The notes below the pieces were generated by a model. It was not told the DNA's origin, did no database searches, and saw only the letters and a list, made by a program, of their open reading frames with translations. The position numbers and the translations under genes are program-made. Positions 5,200 to 50,800 of a stretch of DNA of 64,000 bases are shown here, piece after piece. Every line of letters starts with the position of its first letter. Position 1 is the stretch's first letter. Source of the DNA: Eledone cirrhosa (taxonomy: Eukaryota); contig OZ024741.1 in NCBI GenBank assembly GCA_964016885.1, forward strand, positions 113,150,001 through 113,214,000, in the 5' to 3' direction.

Positions 5200-8040
5200 G
5201 TAATGACAGTGTCACCATCTTTACAATGGCCTACTTCTGTTGCAGATGTGCACTGAGATGAATCTTGTTGGGAACACGCTCTTTCAGCAGAAAGACAAAT
5301 ATAAGACAACTTTGATGTGTCCAGGTTCCAAGAAGTGGCACCTTATTGACTTCGTTTTAACGAGAAAACGTGATATCAGGGATATCACATTGGTTCGTGT
5401 ATTGCGAGGCGCGGACTCTTGGACTGATCATCACCTGGTGCGCACCAAATTTCAATTTGTTGTGAAGCCCAAAGTAAGGGGGAAGAAGGTTGCACTTCCA
5501 AAACAACTAAACGTGGCTCGTCTGAAAACAGAGAAAGTCAGAGCTGAGCTGTCGAAGACCCTTGAGTCCATAGAATGTGAAAACACATGGGAATCATTGA
5601 AGAAAACTATCTATGATGTTAGTGCTGGAGTTTTGGGTCATACTAATAGAAAGCATAAAGACTGGTTCAATGAAAATGATGCAGTGATCCAGACCTTGTT
5701 TGAAGAGAAACAAAAAGTGCTGACATCATAGTTGCATGAGACACGTTCTGACAGGAGTGACCGGACCTTCAGGCAGATCAAGGCATGTGTGCAACATCGA
5801 TTGAGAGCCATGCAGAATACCTGGTGGAGCCAAAAGGCTGATGAAATACAGAAGGCCTCAGATAGACATGATACAAAGCTCCTATACAGTCTGCTCAGGG
5901 AGGGCTATGGTCCGACCGGTTCACAAATATCACCAATTCGCTCCAGGGATGGCAAGGAATTGCTCAGAGATCCGAAGGAAATCCTGATCAGGTGGCAAGA
6001 CCACTTTGATGAGCTTCTCAACAGACCATCAGAAATTGATGATGAGTTCATCCAGCCGATTCCATCCAGACCTACAAAGCTGTCAATGACTGATCCTCCT
6101 TCATTTGATGAGGTGGCGAAGGCCATTGCCAAATTAAACAGTGGCAAGTCACTGGATGGACTGAGTGCCGAGATTTTCAAGTGTGCTGGTGATAACTTCT
6201 TAAACTGCCTCACTGAGCTCGTTGTGAATGTTTTGAATGAAGAAGATATGCCACAGGATTGGAAAGATGCATTGATGGTGGTACTTTACAAACGAAAGGG
6301 AGCCAAAGATGACTGTGGCAACTACAGAGGTATTTCACTGCTATCTGTGGCTGGGAAGATCTTGTGAAGGATATTGTTGGACATATTGATACAGCACATT
6401 GCTGTTGTGGTACTTCCTGAGTCCCAATGTGGCTTTAGGAATGGCAGAGGCACTGTTGACATGATTTTCTCAGCCAAACAACTTCAAGAGAAATGCATTG
6501 AGCAGCGCATGGACTTATACCAAGTTTTTGTCGATCTGACTAAGGCATTTGCCACCGTTAATGGGGAAGGCTTTGTGGGTTATTTTGGAGAGATTGTGAA
6601 AAGTTTGTGAACATTCTGAAACTCTTCCACAATGACATGCAGCCATAGGTGAATGCTGGAGGTAAACTGTCTGAGCCAATCTCGGTTGAAAATGGTGTCA
6701 AGCAGGGTGATATACCTGCACCAACTTTGTTTGCCTTGTATTTCGCAATGGTGTTCTTCATGGCCTGAAAGGATTGACAACATGGTATCTATCTCAGATA
6801 TCGCACTTCCGGCAAGCTGTTTAACCATAGGCATTTCACTGCCAACCCTAAGTTACTGAGTACCTTGATCAGAGAATTTTCATATGCAGATGATTGTGAT
6901 CTCTTTGCACACTCCCTGAGTGACATGCAACACCTTATGGATTCTTTTTCCGATGCGTGCAGTGCTTTGGGGCTGACAATCCGTCTGAAGAAGACTGTCG
7001 TTATGTACCAACCTGCTCCAGATAAAGTTTTCAATGAACCCTCCATATACGTATACAGTCAAAAGCTGAAGGCTGTTGACACATTTGTCTATTTGGAGGG
7101 AGGAGTACTCTGAGTGTGGCCTACTCTCTGGATGCAGAAGTTGGTCTACGTGTTAGTAAGGCAAGTGAGTCATTTGGAAGGCTCAACGACCGTCTTTGGT
7201 GCAGGCGAGGAATCACAATGAGGACCAAGATGAGAGTGTATGCTGCATGTGTACTGTCAGCTTTGCTGTATGCATGTGAGACATGGGTTGTCTACAAATG
7301 GCATATCCACGGACTGGAACGGTTTCACTAGCAGTGTCTCAGAAAGATGCTCGGTATCAAGTGGCAGATGCATATAAGTGAAGTTGAGGTCCTTCTGAGA
7401 AGTGAGTGTCGGAGCATTGAGAGTATCATCCACCAACGGCGTTTGCGATGGACCGGACACCACTGCAAAATGGAGGATGATCAAATCCCAAAGCAACTCT
7501 TGTATGGCGAGCTTTGTGAAGGTAAGAGACCACCTCACAAGCCAAAGATCTGATTCAAGGATTGTGTAAAGGACTCATTGAAAAAAACTGGTTTGATGAT
7601 GGCTGACTGGGAGATAGAAGCTCTTGAAAGAGAAACTTGGCGTGGAATAGTGAAGGATGCGGTCCATAATTTTGAGGAGAAGACACATAGAACATGAGAA
7701 GATCAAACGGGATGTGCGTAGGCAATGCCCTGGTGTATCTCTCGAAACGATCGGTGTCTCCATTGAATTGAAGTGCCCTGAGTGTGGAAAAATTTGCTTG
7801 AGCAAATCTGGTCTCAGGAGCCACATTCGCAGCCATGTTCAAAGAGAACCAGTGAACTATGATCTCCACAGTGTTGTTCATGGGCAACCTGATGCAGGAC
7901 CTCAAGCCAGGGAGATCCATAGTTGTTGTCAGTGTGCGAAGGAGTGCAAGTCTCTAGCAGGCTTGAAAAGCCATATCCGAGCATCACACGTCTGAATCTG
8001 ACAAGCGATTGCAATACTCTTGGCAGAGTTTACAGCCATC

Positions 8041-19135: not shown

Positions 19136-19246
19136 AATATTAGACAGGAAGAAAAAACAGAGAGACAGCACAAATGGTAGTTTATATATATATATATATA
19201 TACACACACACATATATATGTACATATATATACATATATATATATA

Positions 19247-22200
19247 TCATCATCATGGGTTGGCTTCGCGAACGAAGATTAGGAAGGTTGTCCACGTCGT
19301 CTGCAGGCACGCTCATGACTGACAAGTCCGATGCAGGAAAGGCAGGTCCGTGAGCACTATCCACAGATAAAGGTAACGTCGGTGTGGTGTCAGAGGCGGC
19401 TCGGAGCTTCCTTCTGCGTCTCTTGTCTTTTTGCGCGACTCTTCTGTCTTCCTCAAACTCGCTGACCGCGTTGAAGATCGTGTGGCGCCAGGCATCACGG
19501 TCCGCAGCCAGGTCTGACCAGCATTGGTGGTCAACATGACATGCGGTGAGAGACTTTTTGAGACAGTCTTTGTAGCGTTTCTTCGGGGCTCCTCTCTCTC
19601 GGTGGCCGTGGAGAGTTCGCCAAACAGGGTAATCTTAGGAAGGCGATGGTTCTCCATTCTGAAGACATGCCCTGCCCATCAGAGGTGGTACTTCAGTAGC
19701 ATGGCTTCAATGCTGGGGATCTCGGCCTGCTCCAGAACTTCAACGTTTGTGACGAAGTCACTCCAGCGAATGTTGAGGATGGTGCGGAGACATCGCTGGT
19801 GGAAGCGCTCGAGGAGACGGATGTGACTGCGGTAGGTGACCCAGGTCTCTGAGTCGTAGAGGAGAGTGGTGAGAACCACGGCCCTTTATACACTGATCCT
19901 TGTCTTGTTCTTCAGGTTTTTGTTGTGCCAAACACGTTTGTACAATCTGCCAAAGGAGCTATTTGCCTTAGAGAGTCTGTTGTCAATTTCTTTGTCGATC
20001 CTTGCATCGGATGAGATGATTGAGCCCAGGTATGTGAACTGCTGTGTTGGTTTCAGTTCGGTATCGCAGATAGTGATGTAGGGTGAGCGGTATTCTTCTT
20101 GGGGGGGGGGGCTGGTGAAGAACCTCCGTCCTCTTGAGGCTAACCTCCAGGCCAAATAGCCGTGAGGCGTCCGCAAAGCAGGACGTGATGCGCTGCAGAG
20201 CTCGCTCTGTGTGGGCGACGAGGGCAGCGTCGTCCGCGAAGAGAAGGTCTCGGATCAGCCTCTCCTGGGTCTTGGTATTGGCTTGGAGGCGCCGTAGATT
20301 GAAGAGGCTGCCATCCATACAGTACCTGTCATACACTCTATCCCCATCATCCAGATCCTCAGTTGCATGCTTGAGCATCATGCTGAAGAAGATGCTGAAG
20401 AGAGTCAGTGCCAGGACACAACCCTGCTTCACGCCGTTGGAGATGGGGAAGGGCTCCGACAGGTCACCGTTGAGTCTGATCTGGCCGCGCTGGTTCTCGT
20501 GCAGCTGCATCACCATCTGTAGAAACTTGGTGGGACAGCCAAGTCGTTCCAGGATGAGCCATAGTCCTGTCCTGCTCACTGTGTCAAATGCTTTTGTGAG
20601 GTCGACAAAAGCAGCATAGAGTCCCTTGTTTTGTTCTCGGCACTTCTCCTGGAGTTGGCGGAGGACGAACACTATGTCCGTCGTGCCTCTGAAGCCACAC
20701 TGGCTCTCGGGGAGGTTTTCTTCAGCGATGGTTGGTACGAGCCTGTTGAGCAGGATCCTGGCAAGTACTTTTCACCTTTGTTCTTGTACAGGGTTATGAT
20801 GACGGCGTCGCGAAGATCCTGTGGCAGCTTACCCTGCTCCCAACAGCAGGCAAGAAAATCGTGTAGTTTGTCGTGGAGCGTCGGACCTCCATTCTTCCAG
20901 ATTTCTGGTGCGATGCTGTCAACTCCTGCTGCTTTGCGACTCTTGAGTTGTTCTATGGCTTCAGTCGTCTCTTCGAGGGTAGGTGGTTCGTCAAGTTCCT
21001 CTTTGAGTGGAAGTTGAGGAACGCGATGGATGGCAGCGTCTTGTACGGAGCGGTCAGCACTGAAGAGGCTTTGGAAGTGCTCGGACCAGCAAGCGAGGAT
21101 GAAGGTGTTATCGGTAAGGAGGTCCTCTCCATCTGAACTGTGAAGGGGACTCTGGACCTGGTGGGTGGGGCCATACACTGCTTTCAGAGCCTCACAGAAG
21201 CCCCTATAGTCTCCGAGGTCAGCGCACAGCTGGGTTCTCCACGCCAGGTGGTCCCACCACTCGTTCTGTATTTCTCTGAGTTTGCGCTGTAGGGTGCTGC
21301 ATGCGCGTCGAAACGTATCTTTCTTTACAGGAAAGGTTAGTTGTGCAAGGTGGGCCTGATGAGCTGCCCTCTTTTTGCTAGTAAGTCCTGGATCTCCTTG
21401 TCATTTTTATCAAACCAGTCCTTGTTTTTCTTTTTTGTGTGCCCAAGAACTTCCTCAGATGTCTTAAGGATGGCTGATTTCAGGTTCTCCCACAAGGTGT
21501 CTAGGGTGGGGTCATCAGTGCAAGGGGATTCGTCTAGTTTTTGTTGCAGGTCTGCTTGGAACTTGGCTTTCACTTCCTCCCAGCACAGGCTGCCGACGTT
21601 GAGTTTCTTTACGGGGTTACCTTTCTTCTTGGCTTTGGGTTTGAACTGCAGTTTGAGCTTGCAGCGGACGAGGCGATGGTCAGTGTGGCACTCTGAACTG
21701 GGCATCACTCTCGTGTGTAGAACATCTTTCAGGTCCCGTTGGCGCACAAACACATAGTCAAGTAGATGCCAATGTTTGGACCGAGGATGCATCCAAGTTG
21801 TTTTCAGGCGGTCTTTCTGTTGGAAGGTTGTGTTGGTAATGGCAAGTTGGTGCTCTGTGCAGAACTCGATCAGGAGGCACCCGTTGTCATTACAGCCACC
21901 AACGCCGTGTCTTCGAAGGACTCCTTTCCAGGCCTCAGAGTCCCTCCCAACTCTTGCGTTGAAGTCGCCAAGGATCAGGACCTTGTCGTCTGCAGAGGTA
22001 TTGTTCAAGAGTCTGCGCAGATCAGAATAGAAACTGTCTTTGTCCGCAGGATCTGCCAGTAGCGTTGGAGCATAGACACTGAAGAGCGTGAGATGTTGTT
22101 TGCTCTCCAGTGGTAGGCGTATGGATATGATGCGGTCTAAGTGGCCCGTGGGTAACGTTTCAGATTGGAGGCGTTGGAATTCCTCACCATGAGTCCTACA

Positions 22201-23395
22201 CCCGACAGACGTCTTCCAGATGATGGTTTCCCGGACCAGAAAAGGGTGTAGCCAGCGCCGCGTTCTTTGAGGCTGCCCTCGTCAGCGAAGCGGACCTCGC
22301 TGAGAGCTGCTATGTCGATGTTGAGGCGGGAGAGTTCATGGGCTATGAGAGACGAACGACGTTCCGGGCGGCTGCTGTCAGCCTTGTCAAGCATAGTCCT
22401 GACATTCCAGCAGGCAACTTTTCTTTAGTTTTGTTTCCATGTTTGTTCGACCGCTATGAAGATGCCCGTTGACCGCGGCTAGCCAACTGGGTATAGAGGA
22501 GACGAGCTTTGTTTAGGCGAACCTTTTCTACCGCCCCTCTCCATGTGGAGCAGGCAGTGCTCACCCTAGATAGGGCTGCCTGGTCGCTCAGGATGCTGCC
22601 GAGTGGTGTCGTCGCCTCTGGGTCGACAACCAGGCGACGAAAGTCCTGAGCCGCCTACATGTAGAATCGAGACAACGGCTTCCAGTGACATCTTCCACCT
22701 GTTGCTTTCGCCCCTTTCCCATCACTGCAGGGCTTTTGGAATGGTTGGTCATAGAACGTGGAAGTGTCCTTCGGCCTGCGCTGAGGAGTTTTAAGGTGAA
22801 GTGCAGTGCGCGCAAACTGTCCCCACCCTTTAAGCACGAGGTTCATCTGCCATGGCCTAGCGAGCTGGGACGGTGACAGCGAGGTCCTCGGGCCGTAGGT
22901 TTGATGTCGGAGTTTCCCTCTCCAGAAGGCGTAATACTACCCGGTTGCCTAGGCTGAAGTAGAGGTTTACTTAGGGGACCCCACCCGGAGCCTTTGACTA
23001 AAAAGTCTGTCTACAAGGCAGCGGAACGAGATCAGGGAGTCGCACCCATTGGGAGACGATGACCAGTAGACCAGTTCATACGCCTTTTCTTGGTCGTTAA
23101 CCAAACCGGGATCCCAATGCTCCCGAAGTTCCATTCGAGCCGTTGACCAAATGGTTCTTCCGCCTCTTCTGGAATATAATGCCTCGAGTGAGACAGGGGG
23201 GGAGGGCAGTGACCCTATTTAGTGGCGGGTCATGCTCGCCACGTCACAGTGCTATTGCGGACATCTGTGGCTTTTTATAGGGAGAACGCTTGCCAGGTGT
23301 AAACCCACCACGTCCAGAGGCACTGCTGCCAAACTTTTTGCTGGTCTAGGAGTAATCTTAGACCACCCAGCTGGCACCACGGGGAGGTAGTTCGG
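19247..23395 (-). mobile_element. Near full-length RTE-BovB-like LINE (5' UTR, APE, RT, (GAT)n tail), disrupted
   Basis: NIDIAALSEVR, LGDFNARVG, WHLLDY, TDHRLV, FVDLTKAFDTV, GVKQGCVLA, LFADD, FTYLGS; frameshifts and a deletion after LYKNKGEK; GC far above flanks. Confidence 0.93.
23329..23395 (-). ncRNA. HDV-like ribozyme fold at RTE 5' end, lacking the 5' strand of P1
   Basis: P2 CCGAACT/AGTTTGG; P3 ACC/GGT; L3 TCCCCGT; P1 3' strand GCCAGCT; P1.1 GG; P4 GGTCTA/TAGACC; J4/2 AGCAAAA. Confidence 0.75.
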
Positions 23396-23407
23396 TATAT
23401 ATTTATG

Positions 23408-23462
<55 letters not shown>

Positions 23463-23468
<6 letters not shown>

Positions 23469-26202
23469 ATACTTGGGGAGAGTCATTTTTGTGTAATATT
23501 GCCAGAATTAATAACAGCACACACTCACTGTTTGGTTGGTTTTCGCTTTTCGCTTCTGTGTCTTTTATATCGGTAATCTAATTTATTCGGTCCTCAATGT
23601 TGCCATTGACTGACCAACGGTCAAAAATAATACAGATACAATATAGACACAAACACATATATATAGTTTATCAAAGTTCTTTCGTTGCACATCTGCAACA
23701 TCGTCAGTGGTGCTATTGTTTCCTCCCGTTACATTGTAAATCTACGCTATCTTTATTTATTTATTTGTTTGTTTATTTTATTTTGTCTTCTTTGCGCATG
23801 CATTTGCGTGTGTGTATAGTGTTTTGTTTGATGTGTGTTCGTGATTGGGTGACTGTGTATTGGTTAATGTATTCTATCTTTACTAGTGTGTGTTTATATG
23901 TGTTTGTTGTTATTGTGCTTGTGTATGTATTTATTTATTTATTTATCTATTTATTTATTTATTTATTTATTTATACTTTTCTTAGGTCAGTGTTGTTTGT
24001 TTGGGTGTTGTTGTTATTCCATTCATTCTTTCTGTTTCTAAGTTCTATTTCTCTGGCCTCTCTGATTTGCCCATCTGCTGAGTCATTTTTATGTTTAGAT
24101 ATTATTCTAATTTCTATGTCGTCTATGTTACCGTCGTGTTGTTGTCTGGCATGTTCGTATACTACTGAACCGTTTTTTCGTCCTTTTAGTTCCCCCCAGT
24201 GTTGGTCTATCCATTCACCTATGCGACGAGCTGTCTCGCCTATGTATGTTGTTGTCATGTTTCTGCAAGTACCCTCTGTACATCTTATGCTATAGACTAC
24301 GTTTCTACTTTTACAGTTTATCCGGGGGTTTACTTTACATATGATACATTTCCTATTAGTACAGTGGGTTTTCTTAAAAGTGTAGGTTTTGCTGATCAGG
24401 GATTTTATGGTTGTTCCTGGCTTTTCTACCACCTTAATCTTTAAGTGGGTCTTTCTCAGAGCCTTTCTACACTGGTTAGCTAATTTCCCTCCAGGGGTAG
24501 CGTCCACAAACATGACACTCTGGTATCTCTGGTTGTCGTACCACGAGGTGGCTTTCCCTATCTTATGTCTAGCCCTATCTAAGCTATTCCATGATTTGCT
24601 CCTGTATAATGGGCAAATTCCTTTCATGTCCAGTTCTATGAGGGTCTTATACTTCTCCATGGCTCCTTCGTATACACTGACTCTGTCTCTTTGGTTGTAG
24701 CCAGAGAACTGCATGCGGTTGATGAAGTGTTGGATGTCTCTTTCCACTTTTGTTGGATCGCACATGCGGGACACATTCTTCATCACTCGTACCAAATCTG
24801 CGATCAGAATATTAAACTTAGCACTACTGGACATTGCTGAGTTTTTGAGTATCAGGTATTTGGAGGCCATGGGTTTAGCATAGTGTGAGTGGAGAATTTG
24901 GACTCTCTCGTCTATAGTGTTAATCCAGAGTTCCGTGTCTAATACAGGTAGTCTATTGTTAGGGTGTTTGGAAGGGTAGTCGATACTAACGGTTATACTC
25001 TGGTGTATGGAATTAGCTATCTGCTGGATGCTTTCCATTGTGCTACGTTCTAAATCAAACTTGTTAGTGCTCTCTAGTGGGGATGTTCTTATAACTATAT
25101 TGATATCGTCTACGTAACGAGAGTACATGATGAGGTCTATGGAGCTCTCATTAAGGAGATCTTTAAGTCTCCTTTCCCCCATACCATAAAAAGGTTGGCA
25201 ACATCACCAGCTATGCTGACGCCAATGGCTGCGCCCTCATTTTGGGTGTAGATCTTCTCGTTGAACTTGAATATGTGGCCCTTTAGCGTAGTTTTGATAC
25301 TAGCCCCTATTGCATGTGCGACCATTTTTCTTACCTGATCATTGTTTGGTGGGGTCCGTATAGCTTTGGTCCACCCAATCCACCTTCCCATGGGAGTCTT
25401 TTTTGCCATTGAGGTTATGGTGGGGGGTCTAACTCTTATGGGTCTACTGGGGCAGAAACGTCTAAGGTCATGGCTGTCTAGGTAGTCAGTGTCGTAGGTA
25501 AGTCTAAGTAGGAAGCCCAGTTCGTCTGCGTCGACGTCGCAGAATTCCACCTCACTCTCAATGATCATCTCCACACATTTTTCCACAGCAAAATCAATGT
25601 TAATGGATGGGTACAGTGATACCACATCCATGCTGCCTATTATGCTGTTGGATAGGTTCCTGTTTTTGTTGCACTCACTGATTCTGCTGAGGAGGTCCTC
25701 TGTACTGTCACATACATCTGGGGACATCTTAATTATGGGGCGTATAACCATTGAGAGGAAGTAGGAGATCCTGTAGTTGCTAGCTATATTAGCTCCGCAT
25801 AACGGTTTTGTTGGTGGTCCTGTTGTCGGGTCGTCGACTGTCTTGTGGTCTATGCGGAGCCCATACAAGGGTGGTATGCCATTGTTAGACGCCTGCAAGT
25901 TGTTGGCAGTGCGTCTGCTTGGCTTTAGGATGTCAGTCCACATCATCATGTGAGCGTTGAGGATTTTCTCTCTCCCATCATGCGTTTGCTGTGCAATTTC
26001 GCTCGTGTTGGTGATGTGGGGTTGCATAGCCTTGATGGAGTTCGACATGCTATCTATTGACATCCTACCAGACTTATCCGTGGGTAGACATACTACCTCA
26101 CCATACCTTGTGCGCTGCTTGAGGCTAACCAAGCCTTCTACAGGTTTCCTTCCAAGTTTTTGGGCCTCTGGTCTGCTCTGTCTCTTTGTATACCGGTCTA
26201 CT
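23463..26202 (-). mobile_element. Penelope-like retroelement (family P1): RT + GIY-YIG, frameshifted, 5'-truncated
   Basis: TDKSG, SMDVVSLYPSI, QNEGAAIG, RYVDD, LPVLD (RT); NVVYSIRC...TYIGETAR (GIY-YIG); pseudo-LTR 23463-23970. Confidence 0.9.
23670..23711 (-). ncRNA. Hammerhead ribozyme-like motif (P1 pseudo-LTR)
   Basis: ACCA-CTGACGA-T-GTTGCA(GATG)TGCAAC-GAAA-GAAC-TT-TGAT; stem I has a mismatch. Confidence 0.55.
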
Positions 26203-27735
26203 ACTCAGCAATGTCCAGTAGTGCTAAGTTTAATATTCTGATCGCATATTGGGTAGGAGTGATGAAGAATGTGTCCCGCATGTGCGACCCAACAAAAGTG
26301 GAAAGAGACATCCAACACTTCATCAACCTCATGCAGTTCTCTGGCTACAACCAAAGAGACAGAGTCAGAGTATACGAAGGAGCCATGGAGAAGTATAAGA
26401 CCCTCATAGAACTGGACATGAAAGGAATTTGCCCATTATACAGGAGCAAATCATGGAATAGCTTAGATAGGGCTAGACATAAGATAGGGAAAGCCACCCC
26501 GTGGTACGACAACCAGAGATACCAGAGTGTCATGTTTGTGGACGCTTCCCCTGGAGGGAAATTAGCTAACCAGTGTAGAAAGGCCCTGAGAAAGACCCAC
26601 TTAAAGATTAAGGTGGTAGAAAAGCCAGGAACAACCATAAAATCCCTGATCAGCAAAACCTACACTTTTAAGAAAACCCACTGTACTAAAAGGAAATGTA
26701 TCATATGTAAAGTAAACCCCCGGATAAACTGTAAAAGTAGAAACGTAGTCTATAGCATAAGATATACAGAGGGTACTTGCAGAAACATGACAACAACATA
26801 CATAGGTGAGACAGCTCATAGCATAGGCGAAAGGATAGACCAACACTGGGGGGAACTAAAAGGACGAAAAAACGGTTCAGTACTATACGAACATGCCAGA
26901 CAACAACACGACGGTAACATAGACAACATAGAAATGAGAATAATATCTAAACATAGAAATGACCCAGCAGAGAGGCAAATCAGAGAGGCCAGAGAAATAG
27001 AACTTAGAAGGCCAAGACTAAACAGAAAGAATGAATGGAATGACAACAACACCTAAACAAACAACACTGACCTAAGAGAAGTATAAATAAATAAATAAAT
27101 ATTGTTATATTTGGGGAGGGTCATATTTGCGTAATATTGCCAGAATTAATAACACACTCACAAATAGATAAATAAATAAATAAATACATACACAAGCACA
27201 ATAACAACAAACACATATAAACACACACTAGTAAAGATAGAATACATTAACCAATACACAGGCACCCAATCACGAACACACATGAAACAAAACACTATAC
27301 ACACACGCAAACGCATGCGCAAAGAAGACAAAATAAAATAAACAAACAAACAAATAAATAAATAAATATATAAACAGAATAAATAAAATGGCGTAGACAT
27401 ACAATGTAACGGGAGGAAACAATAGCACCACTGACGATGTTGCAGATGTGCAACGAAAGAACTTTGATAAACTATATATATGTGTTTGTGTCTATATTGT
27501 ATCTGTATTATTTTTGACCGTTGGTCAGTCAATGGCAACATTGAGGACCGAATAAATTAGATTACCGATATAAAAGACACAGAAGCGAAAAGCGAAAACC
27601 AACCAAACAGTGAGTGTGTTCTGTTATTAATTCTGGCAATATTACACAAATATGACCCTCCCCAAGTATAACAATATTTGTTTCGACACACGATTTCATA
27701 TAAAAAACCTCGCAAAACTAATTCATCGCCGTTAT
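26203..27735 (+). mobile_element. Inverted partial copy of Penelope P1 (thumb/GIY-YIG, inverted tip 27101-27160, pseudo-LTR, 3' extension)
   Basis: Reverse complement of 23463-24842 with scattered substitutions. Confidence 0.9.
27427..27468 (+). ncRNA. Hammerhead ribozyme-like motif (P1 pseudo-LTR)
   Basis: Same motif as 23670-23711. Confidence 0.55.
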
Positions 27736-28379: not shown

Positions 28380-28455
28380 TAGTCAGTTCTTAGATATGCC
28401 AGCTCTGTGTTTATGGTGTTGATGGTATCAGAGCCTTGGGACATATATATATAAA

Positions 28456-35134: not shown

Positions 35135-35700
35135 GTATATATATATATATTTATATATATATATGTATATATATATGTATATATATATGTGTGTATATGT
35201 ATATATGTATATATGTAGGGCATAATTTTCAAGTATCATTATAGTTTTAAGAAGCTTTAATTTTCTTGTATTGTTGGGTATATGTGCATGTAGAAAAAGA
35301 TAAGGCAATTTACCAGTTGAGTTGTGTATCATATATTCAATAAAGCAATTAATGTACCTCAGCAAATATGCTTTAATCTTTTTTTCTCTTAACCTGTCTA
35401 TACATATATTCTAGTAAAATCTTGGTAAAAATATCCAAAGTGTCAGATCACTCAGTCTGTGGGACAGGTTATGATCTAAAATTATGAGTAAATAAATGCT
35501 CTTGAAAACTATGTGAACATAAGTTTGTCTATCTGTAGGACAGGTATTAGGTTAGTATATATAAATATGAATAAAATAATCTCTTGAATTTCTCCCACTT
35601 CACATAACATTTTTCATTGCAATTTATTTGCAGTAGATTATTTCATTAATTGATTTACATATAAACATAGAATTTTCTTTTTCTTTTGATTTCATTGCAG

Positions 35701-36346
35701 GTGCTAATGCTAAAAATAAAAGAGCTGTTTATGAACCATCTGGAACACAACGTTGTCGACAAGTAATTTGCAGCAAAGAAATGGCTCTCACTGTTGGAGT
35801 TTTAATAGGAATTGTCATCCTAGCTGTTGCTTTTATTGCCTCATTTGCTCGTCCGGATAGCCAAAAATGCAGTATAGCCTCAGTCCAAGAGTCACTTGTT
35901 GATTCCTTGACAAACAGCTCTGAAATTGAGAGAGCAGAAGAGAGCAGTGTTGAGGAAACTGACACAAACTTCCCATGGAGTAGTGTATGGCTTCCAAAAA
36001 CTGTACATCCACTACATTATTCAATATTTATACATCCTAACCTTACTACAAGTTTGGTAACTGGAAACGTGTCAATTACCTGCAAAGCAGTCTCTTCAAC
36101 AAACTTCATTATTTTGCACAATACACAAAACATAACTGAACTGGTTATTCATTCATACAACCAAACAAAAATAAGATCCACTGATTTGATTCAACAAAAG
36201 GGCGGCAGTATGCTATATATCAAACTTGACCGCTTCCTTAAAGAGGGAGAATTAATTGACATCATCATTTATTTCCGGTCACGCTTGCAAAGTGGCATGG
36301 TTGGATTTTATCTTAGCAGTTATACAGCAGAGGATGGATCAACAAG
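35701..36346 (+). CDS. Coding exon of a type II membrane M1 aminopeptidase (ERAP/ENPEP/LNPEP-like): cytoplasmic tail, TM anchor, stalk, N-terminal domain
   Basis: Polypyrimidine tract + CAG acceptor at 35700; open frame ANAKNKRAVYEPS...; TM LTVGVLIGIVILAVAFIA; FPWSSVWLPKTVHPLHYSIFIHPNL...GNVSI...IILH...GFYLSSY; donor AG|GTAAGG. Confidence 0.9.
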
Positions 36347-36734
36347 GTAAGGATGTTTCACATTTAATAAGGTGCCTTAGCATGAAACCAGTAAAAGAGT
36401 ACAATACAGAAATAGCAGTGATAATTTTGATGATTTGTATATCTTTCTCATTTCCATGTTATATCTCATTCCTACATCTAATTTGGTATAAAATCATTTT
36501 TTTAAATCATATTGTTTTCAATTTCAATCTATAAATTTATTGTTTATCAAATCTATACAGCAAAAAGTGAGAAATTAAAAATAAATAGAAAAAAATATAC
36601 AACTAAAATAATGTGCATGTATAGCTGCATTGAGAAGAAGGTCACTTTGCAACCACAATTTTTAGTTCACTCCTACTGTGTGGCACCACTAGCAAGTGTC
36701 TTCTACTATTTTTTCAGGTTCTTCTTCTCGCATA

Positions 36735-42104: not shown

Positions 42105-42630
42105 ACTGGGTGTATTTTAGCATGCCATTATCACTAAAACCTTGCAGGGTGTGCTAGGTGTATTTTATCATAGCACCAGCACTATCACCTTGCAGGTCAG
42201 ATGGAATGAATTTTATTGTGGCACCAGTACTAAAACTTTACAGGGTGGATTGGGTATATTTTATCATAGGCACTAGCACTATCACCTTATAGGGTGGATT
42301 GAGTATATTTTATTGTGGCACCAGTGCTAACACTTTACAGGGTCAACTGGGTGTATTTTATCATGGAACCAGCACTACCACCACACAGAATGGACTGGAT
42401 GGATTTTGTTGTGGCACAAATACTACTATCATGCAGGGTGGAATGGGTGTATTTTATCATGGCACCAGCACTACCACCTTGCAGGTTAGATGGGATGAAT
42501 GTTATTGTGGCACAAACAGTACCAACTAGCAGATTCGACTGGATGTATTTTATTATGGCACTACTGCTACCACATTGAAGGTTTGCCTGGGTGTATTTTT
42601 CATGGCACCAGCACTACCACCATGCAGGCA
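42105..42630. repeat. 48-bp minisatellite, about 11 units, with alternating variants
   Basis: Consensus GGTGTATTTTATCATGGCACCAGCACTACCACCTTGCAGGGTGGACTG. Confidence 0.85.
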
Positions 42631-47801: not shown

Positions 47802-50800
47802 TAAAATAACAGATTAAAGTTTAAGCAAAGAATCGCTGCTTTCACCCTTAACGGGATCTTTGTGTATGTACGTATTTGCATTGTGTATGCATTTATTTAA
47901 TTTCTATTACCTCTTTATTGTATTTATTTACTTTATTCTTAACTCTGAAGCGGAGATTCATTCGGTTCCCTAGTTAGAATTTAGTCTACGACTTCAGCTA
48001 TACCATTTACGTGGTTTTGTCTTTGCTTGCAATTGTTCTTCACGCTCCACATATGACGTATTATCTTCGTTTTTTCCGTTCATTGCCAGAGAACGTCTCT
48101 ATGAACCACCTAAGAGAACATTAGTCTACGACTACTTTTATACCTTAAACGTGGTTCTGTCTTTGCGCGTAATTGTTTTTCACCGCTCCTATCAATGACG
48201 TATTATATTCGTTTTTCCCGTTCTTTGTCAGGGAACGTTTCCACGAACCAAAGTATCGTCTTCCTGTCTTCCTCCGGTTGCAACGTTTTTTGAAATATCC
48301 ACTTCTGCGTTTACAGATTGACTTTGTTAGTTTCAGAAGATCCCGTTAAGGGTGAAAGCAGCGATTCTTTGCTTAAACTTTAATCTGTTATTTTAATAAA
48401 TATTTGCTCTACGGTTCTTATATATTTGATATATATTTATCTTTATCGAGCCCTCTTTGGATTTTAGTCTTCAAATTTATTATTATTACTATTTGGCTCC
48501 CTCGGTTGAGCACTCTATTGACTTATATTCATCATGCAGAAACAACATCTGAATATTTCTACAAAGAACATACCCGTACCAAGCAGGAAAACATACCTAA
48601 AACTCCTGATACAGAAAACAGACGCGTTCATTAAAAGGTTGCGTTGGCGTGCCTTTTATTTCGATAATCCGCGAAAAGCAGACAACAAACAGGATAAATT
48701 TGGGTTTAAAACCTATAATAACCCCCGTGTAACACAGCATTGCTACCCTTGGAAAATGATGTCTTGGAACTCATACGCAGTATCAAATTTTGGAATAGGA
48801 GCAATTCCTTCCAGCAGGACCTGAAGAATAGAATTCGTTCTATTAAGGATTCTAATGCCGTGCACGTCCATTCCGACAAAACTGGCAATCTATATCAAGT
48901 GGAGCGCAGTACTTACCATCAACTACTACATAATGCTGTAACTAAGGATTACCGTAAAACTAATCGGTGCGTCATCAATAAAATCAACGATGCTGGGTTT
49001 AAAATCACCTCTGATCTCAACATCCTGGACCGGACCGAACCTCTGGACCCTATTTCTCCCCACTTTACCCTGAAGGATCACAAATCCAATTTTCCGAACA
49101 ACCCCTCTATTCGGCTTATTAACCTTACGAAGTCCGATTTAGGTAGACTTAGTAAAAGGATTATTGATAGAATTATACCTTAAATTAGAAGTTTGGCCCC
49201 TCTTGCACTGTGGAACAATTCTTTCGCGGTTATTGATTGGTTCAACGGCATATGCAACAAGGAACATTGCCGTTTTATCCAATTCGACATCAACAATTAC
49301 TACTCCTCCATCACTTTACCACTTCTCCTTAGAGCTATCACACTAAAACACTCACAGTGGTTAAGGATTTCGAAGTTGATGTCATCCTCAATGCCCGTAA
49401 GTCGGTGATTAATTTCGACGACTCTATTTGGATTAAAAAATCCAATAGTACCCCATTCGACGTGAGTATGGGCGCCAGCGATTCTGCGGAGGTTACTGAT
49501 CTTATCGGCCTTTTCCTTCTTTTCTCTATCAAGGGCGAATTCCCCAACGCGGGCGGTGGTTTGTACCGTGATGATGGTCTTTTGACCATGACTAAGTGCG
49601 GACCTCGCGCTTGCGACAGGTTCAGAAAAGAACTCACAGCCTTCTTTAAAGGCTTCAACCTCTCTATACAGGTTGAGGCCAATCTCTCGGTCCTTAATTA
49701 CATCGACGTTACCCTCAATTTATCGAATGGGTTGTATTACCCGTATAGAAAGCCGAATGATACGCTTAATTACATAAGAAAGCATTCCAACCATCTTGCC
49801 AGCATAACCAAGAAACTGGTAAAAAACGTTTCGTTGAGGCTTTCCCGACTTACGGGCATATTTTCAACGACCATTCCACTTATTACAATGAAGCTCTTGC
49901 TCGTAGTGGATTTGTCGATAAGGTAGCATATACAGAGTACGAAAATAGACCTAGAAGAAATAGATCCCGTCGCATTTGTTGGTATAACCCACCATATAAT
50001 ATGGAGGTGGCCACACCATTAGCTAAGATCTTTCTTTCCCTTATTACGAAGCATTTTCCCCCTACACATAAATATAGTAAAATTTTTAATAGAAATACTA
50101 TTGAAATTTCTTACTCTACGACTCCGAACCTTGCACATAACATCACAGCTTCAAATTTAGCTAAACTACCTAGCCGTAGGAACACGTGCAACCCTGTAGT
50201 TAGTACTAACTGTAATTGTAGGAATCGGGTTGATTGCCGCCTATCCAGGAAATGCCTCTCTAGTAACATTGTCTACAAATGTAAGGTTGAAACACCCACG
50301 TCCCGTAGGGCCTACATAGGGTTAACCGCCAATAGATTCAAGCAGCGTCCATTACATGCATACCCATTCTTTTCGTTACCTTCTAAGAAGGAATATGACG
50401 TCACTTTCAGCTTATATCTGGAGTCTAAAAGACAACCACACCCAATTTAAGTTACACTGAGAGATCCTAGCTAGGGCTAGATCGTATAACGGAAATAAAA
50501 GACCATGTGACCTCTGCGCCGCTGAGGCCCTGGAAATACTCTACGCCACAGACCACATCTAAAAAAAAAATCTGAGGCAATTTCGGCTTGTAAACATAAA
50601 TTGCACAAAACTTTCCTGTATTACAGCCCCACATTATACCCTAACGGATAGTACGATCTATACGTGGATATTTTACGTCTTGATGTGGTAGCTAAGTATA
50701 TGTTTTGTTTATACCATTACTTATTTGCATAGGTAAGTATATATTACCTGTATGTTTTGTGAAGGTACGTATACTTTTTCATACGTATATTTGATTGATT

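Follow-up and report, generated by a model that had tools for sequence, protein, structure and literature searches.

A segment of 67 nt at positions 23329..23395 (minus strand) of the 64-kb window, which is the whole stretch of octopod DNA that was analysed, is very probably a 5'-clipped HDV-like ribozyme that heads an RTE-type LINE, with intact copies likely to cut just before P1 and the copy in the window predicted to be inactive. HDV-like ribozymes on RTEs have already been published in other animals, as reported in PMC3774820, PMC6765202 and PMC8256844. The core in the window is without the 5' strand of P1 and the linker J1/2.

The element and its predicted ribozyme core

The element is about 4.15 kb long and is flanked by (TA)n at each end. 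It runs on the minus strand from 23395 to about 19248, with a tract at the 5' junction (23396..23464), which is the likely insertion target, and another beyond the 3' end (19183-19247). Behind the ribozyme core lie the rest of the 5' leader (22395..23328, minus strand), of which only the distal ~470 nt (400-490) resembles the closest relatives, a single broken ORF (19279..22394, minus strand) for an APE endonuclease, a reverse transcriptase and a C-terminal Cys-His region, and a 31-nt 3' UTR (19248..19278, minus strand) that ends in (ATG)3. The ORF matches residues 1-1059 of the 1059-aa protein P0001 in seven pieces, and its frame changes and stops mean that the window copy is dead as a retrotransposon. 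Pfam matches in the element are PF14529, PF03372 and PF00078. RTEs are defined by a single ORF, a short 3' UTR and a short-repeat tail. Judged by the same anatomy, with a single ORF of ~1060 aa, a short 3' UTR and a short-repeat tail, the element classifies as an RTE-type LINE; the original prediction had called it RTE-BovB-like, in which BovB is a putative finer label, and the RTE-type anatomy is borne out by the match of the single ORF, with its APE endonuclease and reverse transcriptase, to P0001 from end to end. A single ORF for endonuclease and reverse transcriptase and a microsatellite tail are likewise described for RTEs in PMC8501958 and PMC9115989.

The leader also holds a TATA-like word, CTATAAAAAG, at 23272-23281 (minus strand), about 110 nt inside it. 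The stretch 19260-23395 has sampled words in common with 20 runs (15 studies, 14 organism codes; shares 0.09-0.43), and part of the endonuclease reaches 85% identity to a protein of a mantis shrimp; together these hint at a wide or horizontal spread of the element. Elsewhere in the window we observed a second, more distant and 5'-truncated RTE-type copy at 5225-7706 (plus strand; 38-46% identity to P0001), an M1 aminopeptidase exon at 35637-36350 (plus strand; 86% identical to an Octopus sinensis protein, the best of 3 matches, which indicates an octopod host) and a 48-bp tandem array of 10.9 copies at 42107-42628.

The original prediction had named the parts of an HDV double pseudoknot at 23329..23395; all are present on the minus strand, with P2, P3, P1.1 and P4 in nested double-pseudoknot order. 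The window copy of the element opens with the 5' strand of P2, CCGAACT (23389..23395), which pairs with AGTTTGG (23329..23335) over 7 bp, as six Watson-Crick pairs and one G.U pair; T23331 of the latter strand is C, giving a G-C pair, in most other copies. P3 (23376..23388) is formed by ACC at 23388-23386 and GGT at 23378-23376 and closes L3, TCCCCGT (23379..23385), which supplies the U...G reverse-wobble bases and, with C23384 and C23383, the 5' side of P1.1; the role of the L3 G in an HDV-like fold is taken from PMC3774820. The 3' strand of P1, GCCAGCT (23369..23375), is partnerless in the window copy and has a partner in longer copies. It is followed by the GG of P1.1 (23368-23367) and a third G (23366..23368 in all), and by analogy with HDV we take the third G, at 23366, to be the likely G.G partner of G23341. 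The P4 hairpin (23342..23365) has a 7-bp stem and a 2-bp capping stem (-9.6 kcal/mol), and J4/2 (23336..23341) contains the predicted catalytic C23340. J4/2 reads CAAAA in the window copy and CGAAA in other copies, one A longer than the usual CNRA, with the catalytic C and the conserved A present.

The Rfam model RF01787 (drz-agam-1) aligns at positions 13-82 of its 82, from exactly 23395, with 30.7 bits and E 5.7e-5 on a 96-nt stretch picked post hoc, and with E 8.5e-4 when 1201 nt were searched. This is below the 37-bit gathering score, and the whole 64-kb window gave zero matches at gathering level. A strict descriptor that did not require the P1 5' strand matched once on the two strands of the window, at the ribozyme core, and in none of 3000 dinucleotide shuffles of the element, a significance that is somewhat overstated as the L3 pattern was fixed after viewing related loci and the core. 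A loose descriptor is unspecific: it matched at 2 additional places in the window and gave 8 matches across five bacterial loci, and the control counts are based on the strict one. Minimum-energy folding without pseudoknots gives nothing unusual (z -0.81), which is what a pseudoknot deprived of its P1 should show. A degenerate core pattern gave 0 matches in viral contigs and 5 in bacterial genomes, none of which adopts the HDV fold at the match and which we took as chance. A MAFFT alignment of 8 ribozyme cores wrongly set P4 against P2.

The missing P1 strand and the clipped copy

Four of the 24 runs listed were aligned to 23000-23409: X1, X4 and X5, which are among the 20 that share words with the element, and X23. 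Zero records of X5 aligned there, and those of X1, X4 and X23 cease matching at 23395. Among the loose ends listed, one X1 contig continues past 23395, in element sense, as (TA)n, AGCTGGC, ATG and then P2, and the consensus of four X4 contigs, which carry a different organism code from X1, has GACTGGC and ATG. The X1 strand pairs with GCCAGCT at 7/7 positions and the X4 consensus at 6/7; P1 position 1 is an A-U pair in X1 and a G.U pair in X4, the latter with a mismatch at position 2. In X1, (TA)n directly precedes the P1 5' strand and the element starts there. The four X4 ends agree with one another at 0.57, a value that in simulation fits 0-2 of four ends sharing ten letters and not 3-4; since the X4 consensus repeats eight letters of the X1 loose end, we read this as about two of the four X4 ends carrying the strand. 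X1 may be the run from which the window derives, but the junction of its contig differs from that of the window copy, and the contig therefore represents another locus or allele.

The P1 5' strand and an ATG linker thus exist in longer copies, with the strand 3 nt upstream of P2. The original prediction had asked for GGCTGGC immediately upstream of the element in other copies: a complementary strand is indeed there, but 3 nt away, and the exact heptamer is not in the listed ends. A G1.U pair, or an exact GGCTGGC, in longer copies is inferred from the X1 and X4 ends, neither of which shows GG at positions 1-2. The further proposal that the window copy is truncated just downstream of the predicted cleavage site agrees with longer copies extending past 23395 by the P1 5' strand and ATG.

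Differences in other copies repair the fold. The G.U pair of P2 at 23331 becomes G-C (21/21 in X1, 205/274 of summed depth in X4, 28/28 reads with one start in X23), A23339 in J4/2 becomes G, changing GCAAAA to GCGAAA (X1 21/21, X4 274/274, X23 29/29 reads with one start), and A23358G, in element sense, closes P4 to 10 bp in X4 (439/468 of depth) and is absent in X1 and X23. A minority X4 change at 23334 (49/274 of depth) disrupts one P2 pair. These are among the variants listed for X1, X4 and X23. The 29 X23 reads share a single start and were counted as one observation. X23 is a reduced-representation run, and longer copies have GCATGC across the junction at 23395; a restriction cut may explain the common start.

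These results bear on whether the core could be a chance arrangement of short helices at a repeat edge. The score under the Rfam gathering level and the additional matches of the loose descriptor would fit such an arrangement, but the strict descriptor matched none of the shuffles, the missing strand was predicted in advance and then found in independent runs, and variants in other copies repair pairs. We consider chance extremely improbable, and it is largely refuted already by the longer copies.

Returning to the clipped ribozyme itself, the ATG linker (J1/2) of longer copies is represented in the window by ATA, and the break may accordingly fall at either the P1/linker boundary or the linker/P2 boundary. 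The window copy is short of 7-10 nt, comprising the P1 5' strand and a J1/2 that is missing or mutated. The original prediction, that only the P1 5' strand is missing and is replaced by (TA)n, needs one correction: the linker is gone or mutated too. The best 7-mer of the (TA)n tract makes 3/7 pairs with the P1 3' strand, and the best found in a 300-nt range lies 224 nt off, in the neighbouring element, with 6 pairs that include 4 Watson-Crick ones; no partner for a P1 of 6-7 bp in cis was found in the upstream (TA)n and the 300 nt scanned. In folds of the copy by itself, which ignore pseudoknots, the P1 3' strand is taken up by the P2 3' strand and the bases past it; this structure has -22.4 kcal/mol, compared with -17.7 for P2+P3+P4, and with 20 more bases the probabilities of P2 and P3 are 0.0. 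With no P1 partner in cis and a predicted misfold, the window copy is likely unable to self-cleave, in agreement with the original prediction.

The lost part is the substrate strand, and the clipped copy might instead work in trans, with its free P1 3' strand binding a 7-nt match in another RNA that is then cut. Trans-acting HDV constructs without J1/2 do cleave, more slowly (PMC4908430), and when two strands are folded together a separate 7-mer is predicted to pair with the P1 3' strand. Against this, the P1 3' strand alone pairs downstream and leaves P2 and P3 at zero probability when pseudoknots are ignored, the predicted fold is still without P2 when the 7-mer is bound, and the copy carries two decay changes, in P2 and J4/2. 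Such activity is very unlikely. We think it highly improbable, too, that RTE copies which, like this one, have lost precisely the substrate strand serve in nature as HDV ribozymes in trans and, when transcribed, cut octopus RNAs with a 7-nt match; if true, a dead retrotransposon copy would be a genome-encoded RNA cutter. Genome-encoded trans-acting RNA cutters of such a kind have been sought and, to our knowledge, none has been shown.

One idea for a displaced P1 strand was rejected. The neighbouring Penelope pair splitting the ribozyme, with the P1 strand on its far side, does not fit, as GGCTGGC occurs nowhere in the window in either orientation, and the one AGCTGGC on the minus strand, at 28404, is ~5 kb upstream and without the ATG linker. 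This pair lies directly beyond the 5' (TA)n, at 23461-27677, and consists of two Penelope-like pieces in inverted orientation with 91% identity across 1475 nt; by eye they look RT-like and GIY-YIG-like, and they have no Pfam match. A hammerhead-like core was seen by eye in the Penelope terminal repeat at 27431-27475 (plus strand; CTGACGA, a 6-bp hairpin and GAAA), with its mirror near 23665-23710 (minus strand); it had no Rfam match and unremarkable folding. A further broken Penelope-like RT region was noted by eye at 48722-50450.

HDV-like folds in related RTE leaders

Metagenome contigs were scanned with a 21-sequence alignment, which gave 196 relatives, of which the best 80 were used; no related loci were found in viral contigs, and 3 were found in bacterial assemblies, where they are probably contamination. 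Of these 83 loci, 43 were eligible, with at least 800 nt upstream of the ORF start. The strict descriptor matched six of the 43 (L025, L026, L033, L056, L059 and L060), 749-876 nt from the ORF, which amounts to 6 matches in 77 kb of sense leader against 0 in the antisense leaders (77 kb) and 0 in ORFs and downstream DNA of related RTEs (226 kb per strand). The loose descriptor adds L021, L022, L032 and L034, and the folds of L030 and L063 were parsed by eye. By any route, an HDV fold was thus found in 12/43 eligible loci, or ~8 distinct leaders, since several are duplicates. The sequences of P1, P2 and P3 differ among the fold-bearing leaders and the pairing is kept.

Copy-to-copy identity begins within ~2 nt of the P1 5' strand in three pairs (L025/L026, L056/L065 and L030/L063), which reads as the mark of an end set by cleavage; no descriptor matched L065. 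The L059/L060 leaders end in a microsatellite without a clean P1 partner, like the window copy. Folds with J1/2 inserts of ~100-165 nt and a 6- or 7-bp P1 were observed at L025 302-454, L033, L034 582-759, L056 and L032, and L056, L030 and L063 have GT instead of GG at P1.1.

Among the relatives listed, the five that are closest and have long upstream DNA (L006, L008, L012, L019 and L075; 65-76% best-segment identity to P0001) gave no descriptor match. In 20 related loci Rfam reported no ribozyme at its gathering level, and a search of the L075 leader found none even at E 5. The fold is absent from these closest relatives, which resemble only the distal leader; it therefore seems that families of RTEs have exchanged leaders, together with the processing modules in them. 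The other 31 of the 43 loci may be truncated, decayed or using other modules. Four leaders (L008 2196-2400, L075 2188-2390, L019 499-700 and L012 2330-2530) have a common 5' end that opens with GTCAG repeats and GC-rich hairpins, with no HDV or Rfam match, which is a candidate for an unrecognised processing module.

Proposed mechanism and comparison with known systems

In the mechanism that we favour, RNA of the element would be transcribed from outside it, as a read-through transcript, and the HDV-type core of intact copies would cut immediately 5' of P1, using C23340 as the presumed catalytic base. The cut RNA would be reverse-transcribed into (TA)n sites, and full-length copies would start at P1. 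The 7-10 bases missing from the window copy were most likely never inserted, the 5' end having been left incomplete and joined via the AT common to the linker and (TA)n; less likely, they were deleted afterwards at the edge of the microsatellite. Cleavage at the 5' junction has been published for RTE, R2, R4 and L1-clade elements (PMC3774820 and PMC6765202).

How well the family cleaves may depend in part on its linker. In Agam-2-1 constructs, a J1/2 of 0-1 nt gave no or little activity and one of 3 nt a slow rate of several per hour (PMC4908430); the linker of the longer copies has 3 nt, or 1-2 nt if P2 extends, although the P2 of these constructs is longer. The core could be a real HDV-type relic that is a poor cleaver throughout the family and is retained mainly for another role, such as translation start on uncapped RNA, protein binding or an internal promoter. 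The slowing of Agam-2-1 by a short J1/2, the extra A in J4/2, the TATA-like word in the leader and the dual roles described for R2 and L1Tc (PMC6765202 and PMC8256844) are in line with this reading. We nevertheless regard it as unlikely, given that the HDV ribozyme in PMC10377752 has the same 3-nt ATG linker, that the catalytic C, L3 and P1.1 are intact, that the X1 element starts exactly at P1, and that the ORF start, ~1 kb downstream, is far for a translation-start role.

With a self-cleaving head as the preferred reading, 5'-end HDV-like ribozymes would extend to an octopod RTE family in which cleavage is likely, and the true 5' end of the family would be set about 10 nt upstream of the start of the window copy. 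The ribozyme would be a compact natural one, near HDV in P1, linker and core. Octopus genomes have many recently active RTE families, with 13 in Table 1 of PMC13282606, and with a ribozyme head such families could free their RNA from whatever transcript reads through them. As this mechanism is already established, the octopod case adds modest surprise.

As in the published RTE ribozymes, the octopod ribozyme has a 5'-end position, the parts of a double pseudoknot and a predicted cleavage site at the junction; it differs in its host, and its cleavage is predicted. A literature search judged on titles and abstract openings, which covered subscription papers thinly and had repeat databases outside its scope, listed no cephalopod HDV-like ribozyme on an RTE, a weak sign of absence, and the word 'ribozyme' is absent from the main text of the octopus transposon papers PMC9115989 and PMC13282606. 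The RTE-2_OV LINE of octopus brain (PMC9115989) has the RTE clade, octopus host, single ORF and microsatellite tail in common with the element, and PMC13282606 states that its sequence had not been reported. Identity with RTE-2_OV was rejected: 0/5 published primers match the sense strand of the element at <6 mismatches, which makes it a different family. In the second RTE-type copy, a primer of RTE-2_OV does fit at 6486 with 2 mismatches, but it falls on an RT motif that is conserved. The Perere-3 RTE of Schistosoma mansoni is an RTE-clade element headed by a self-cleaving RNA as well, but by twister variants and not by an HDV fold (PMC8501958). Among ribozymes, drz-Agam-1 (RF01787) is the best and only match, with the same P3, a near-identical L3 and a compact layout; the sequences of P2 and P4 differ, the window copy is without model positions 1-12 and the octopod linker is ATG. 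This linker is short; in five related RTE leaders P1 and P2 are about 100-165 nt apart.

The closest likeness in the core is to the HDV ribozyme of PMC10377752 (Table 3). By hand count, 32/38 positions outside P2 and P4 are identical in the longer copies, which have the ATG linker, GGG and GCGAA in common with it. Where P3 and P1 position 4 differ, the changes compensate each other; P2 and P4 are unrelated in sequence and the octopod L3 is one base shorter. R2 ribozymes have 21/27 core bases the same as HDV, which is read as convergence (PMC8256844). With R2 as the precedent, we set common descent with HDV low, and the likeness of the octopod ribozyme to HDV is likelier to come from convergence.
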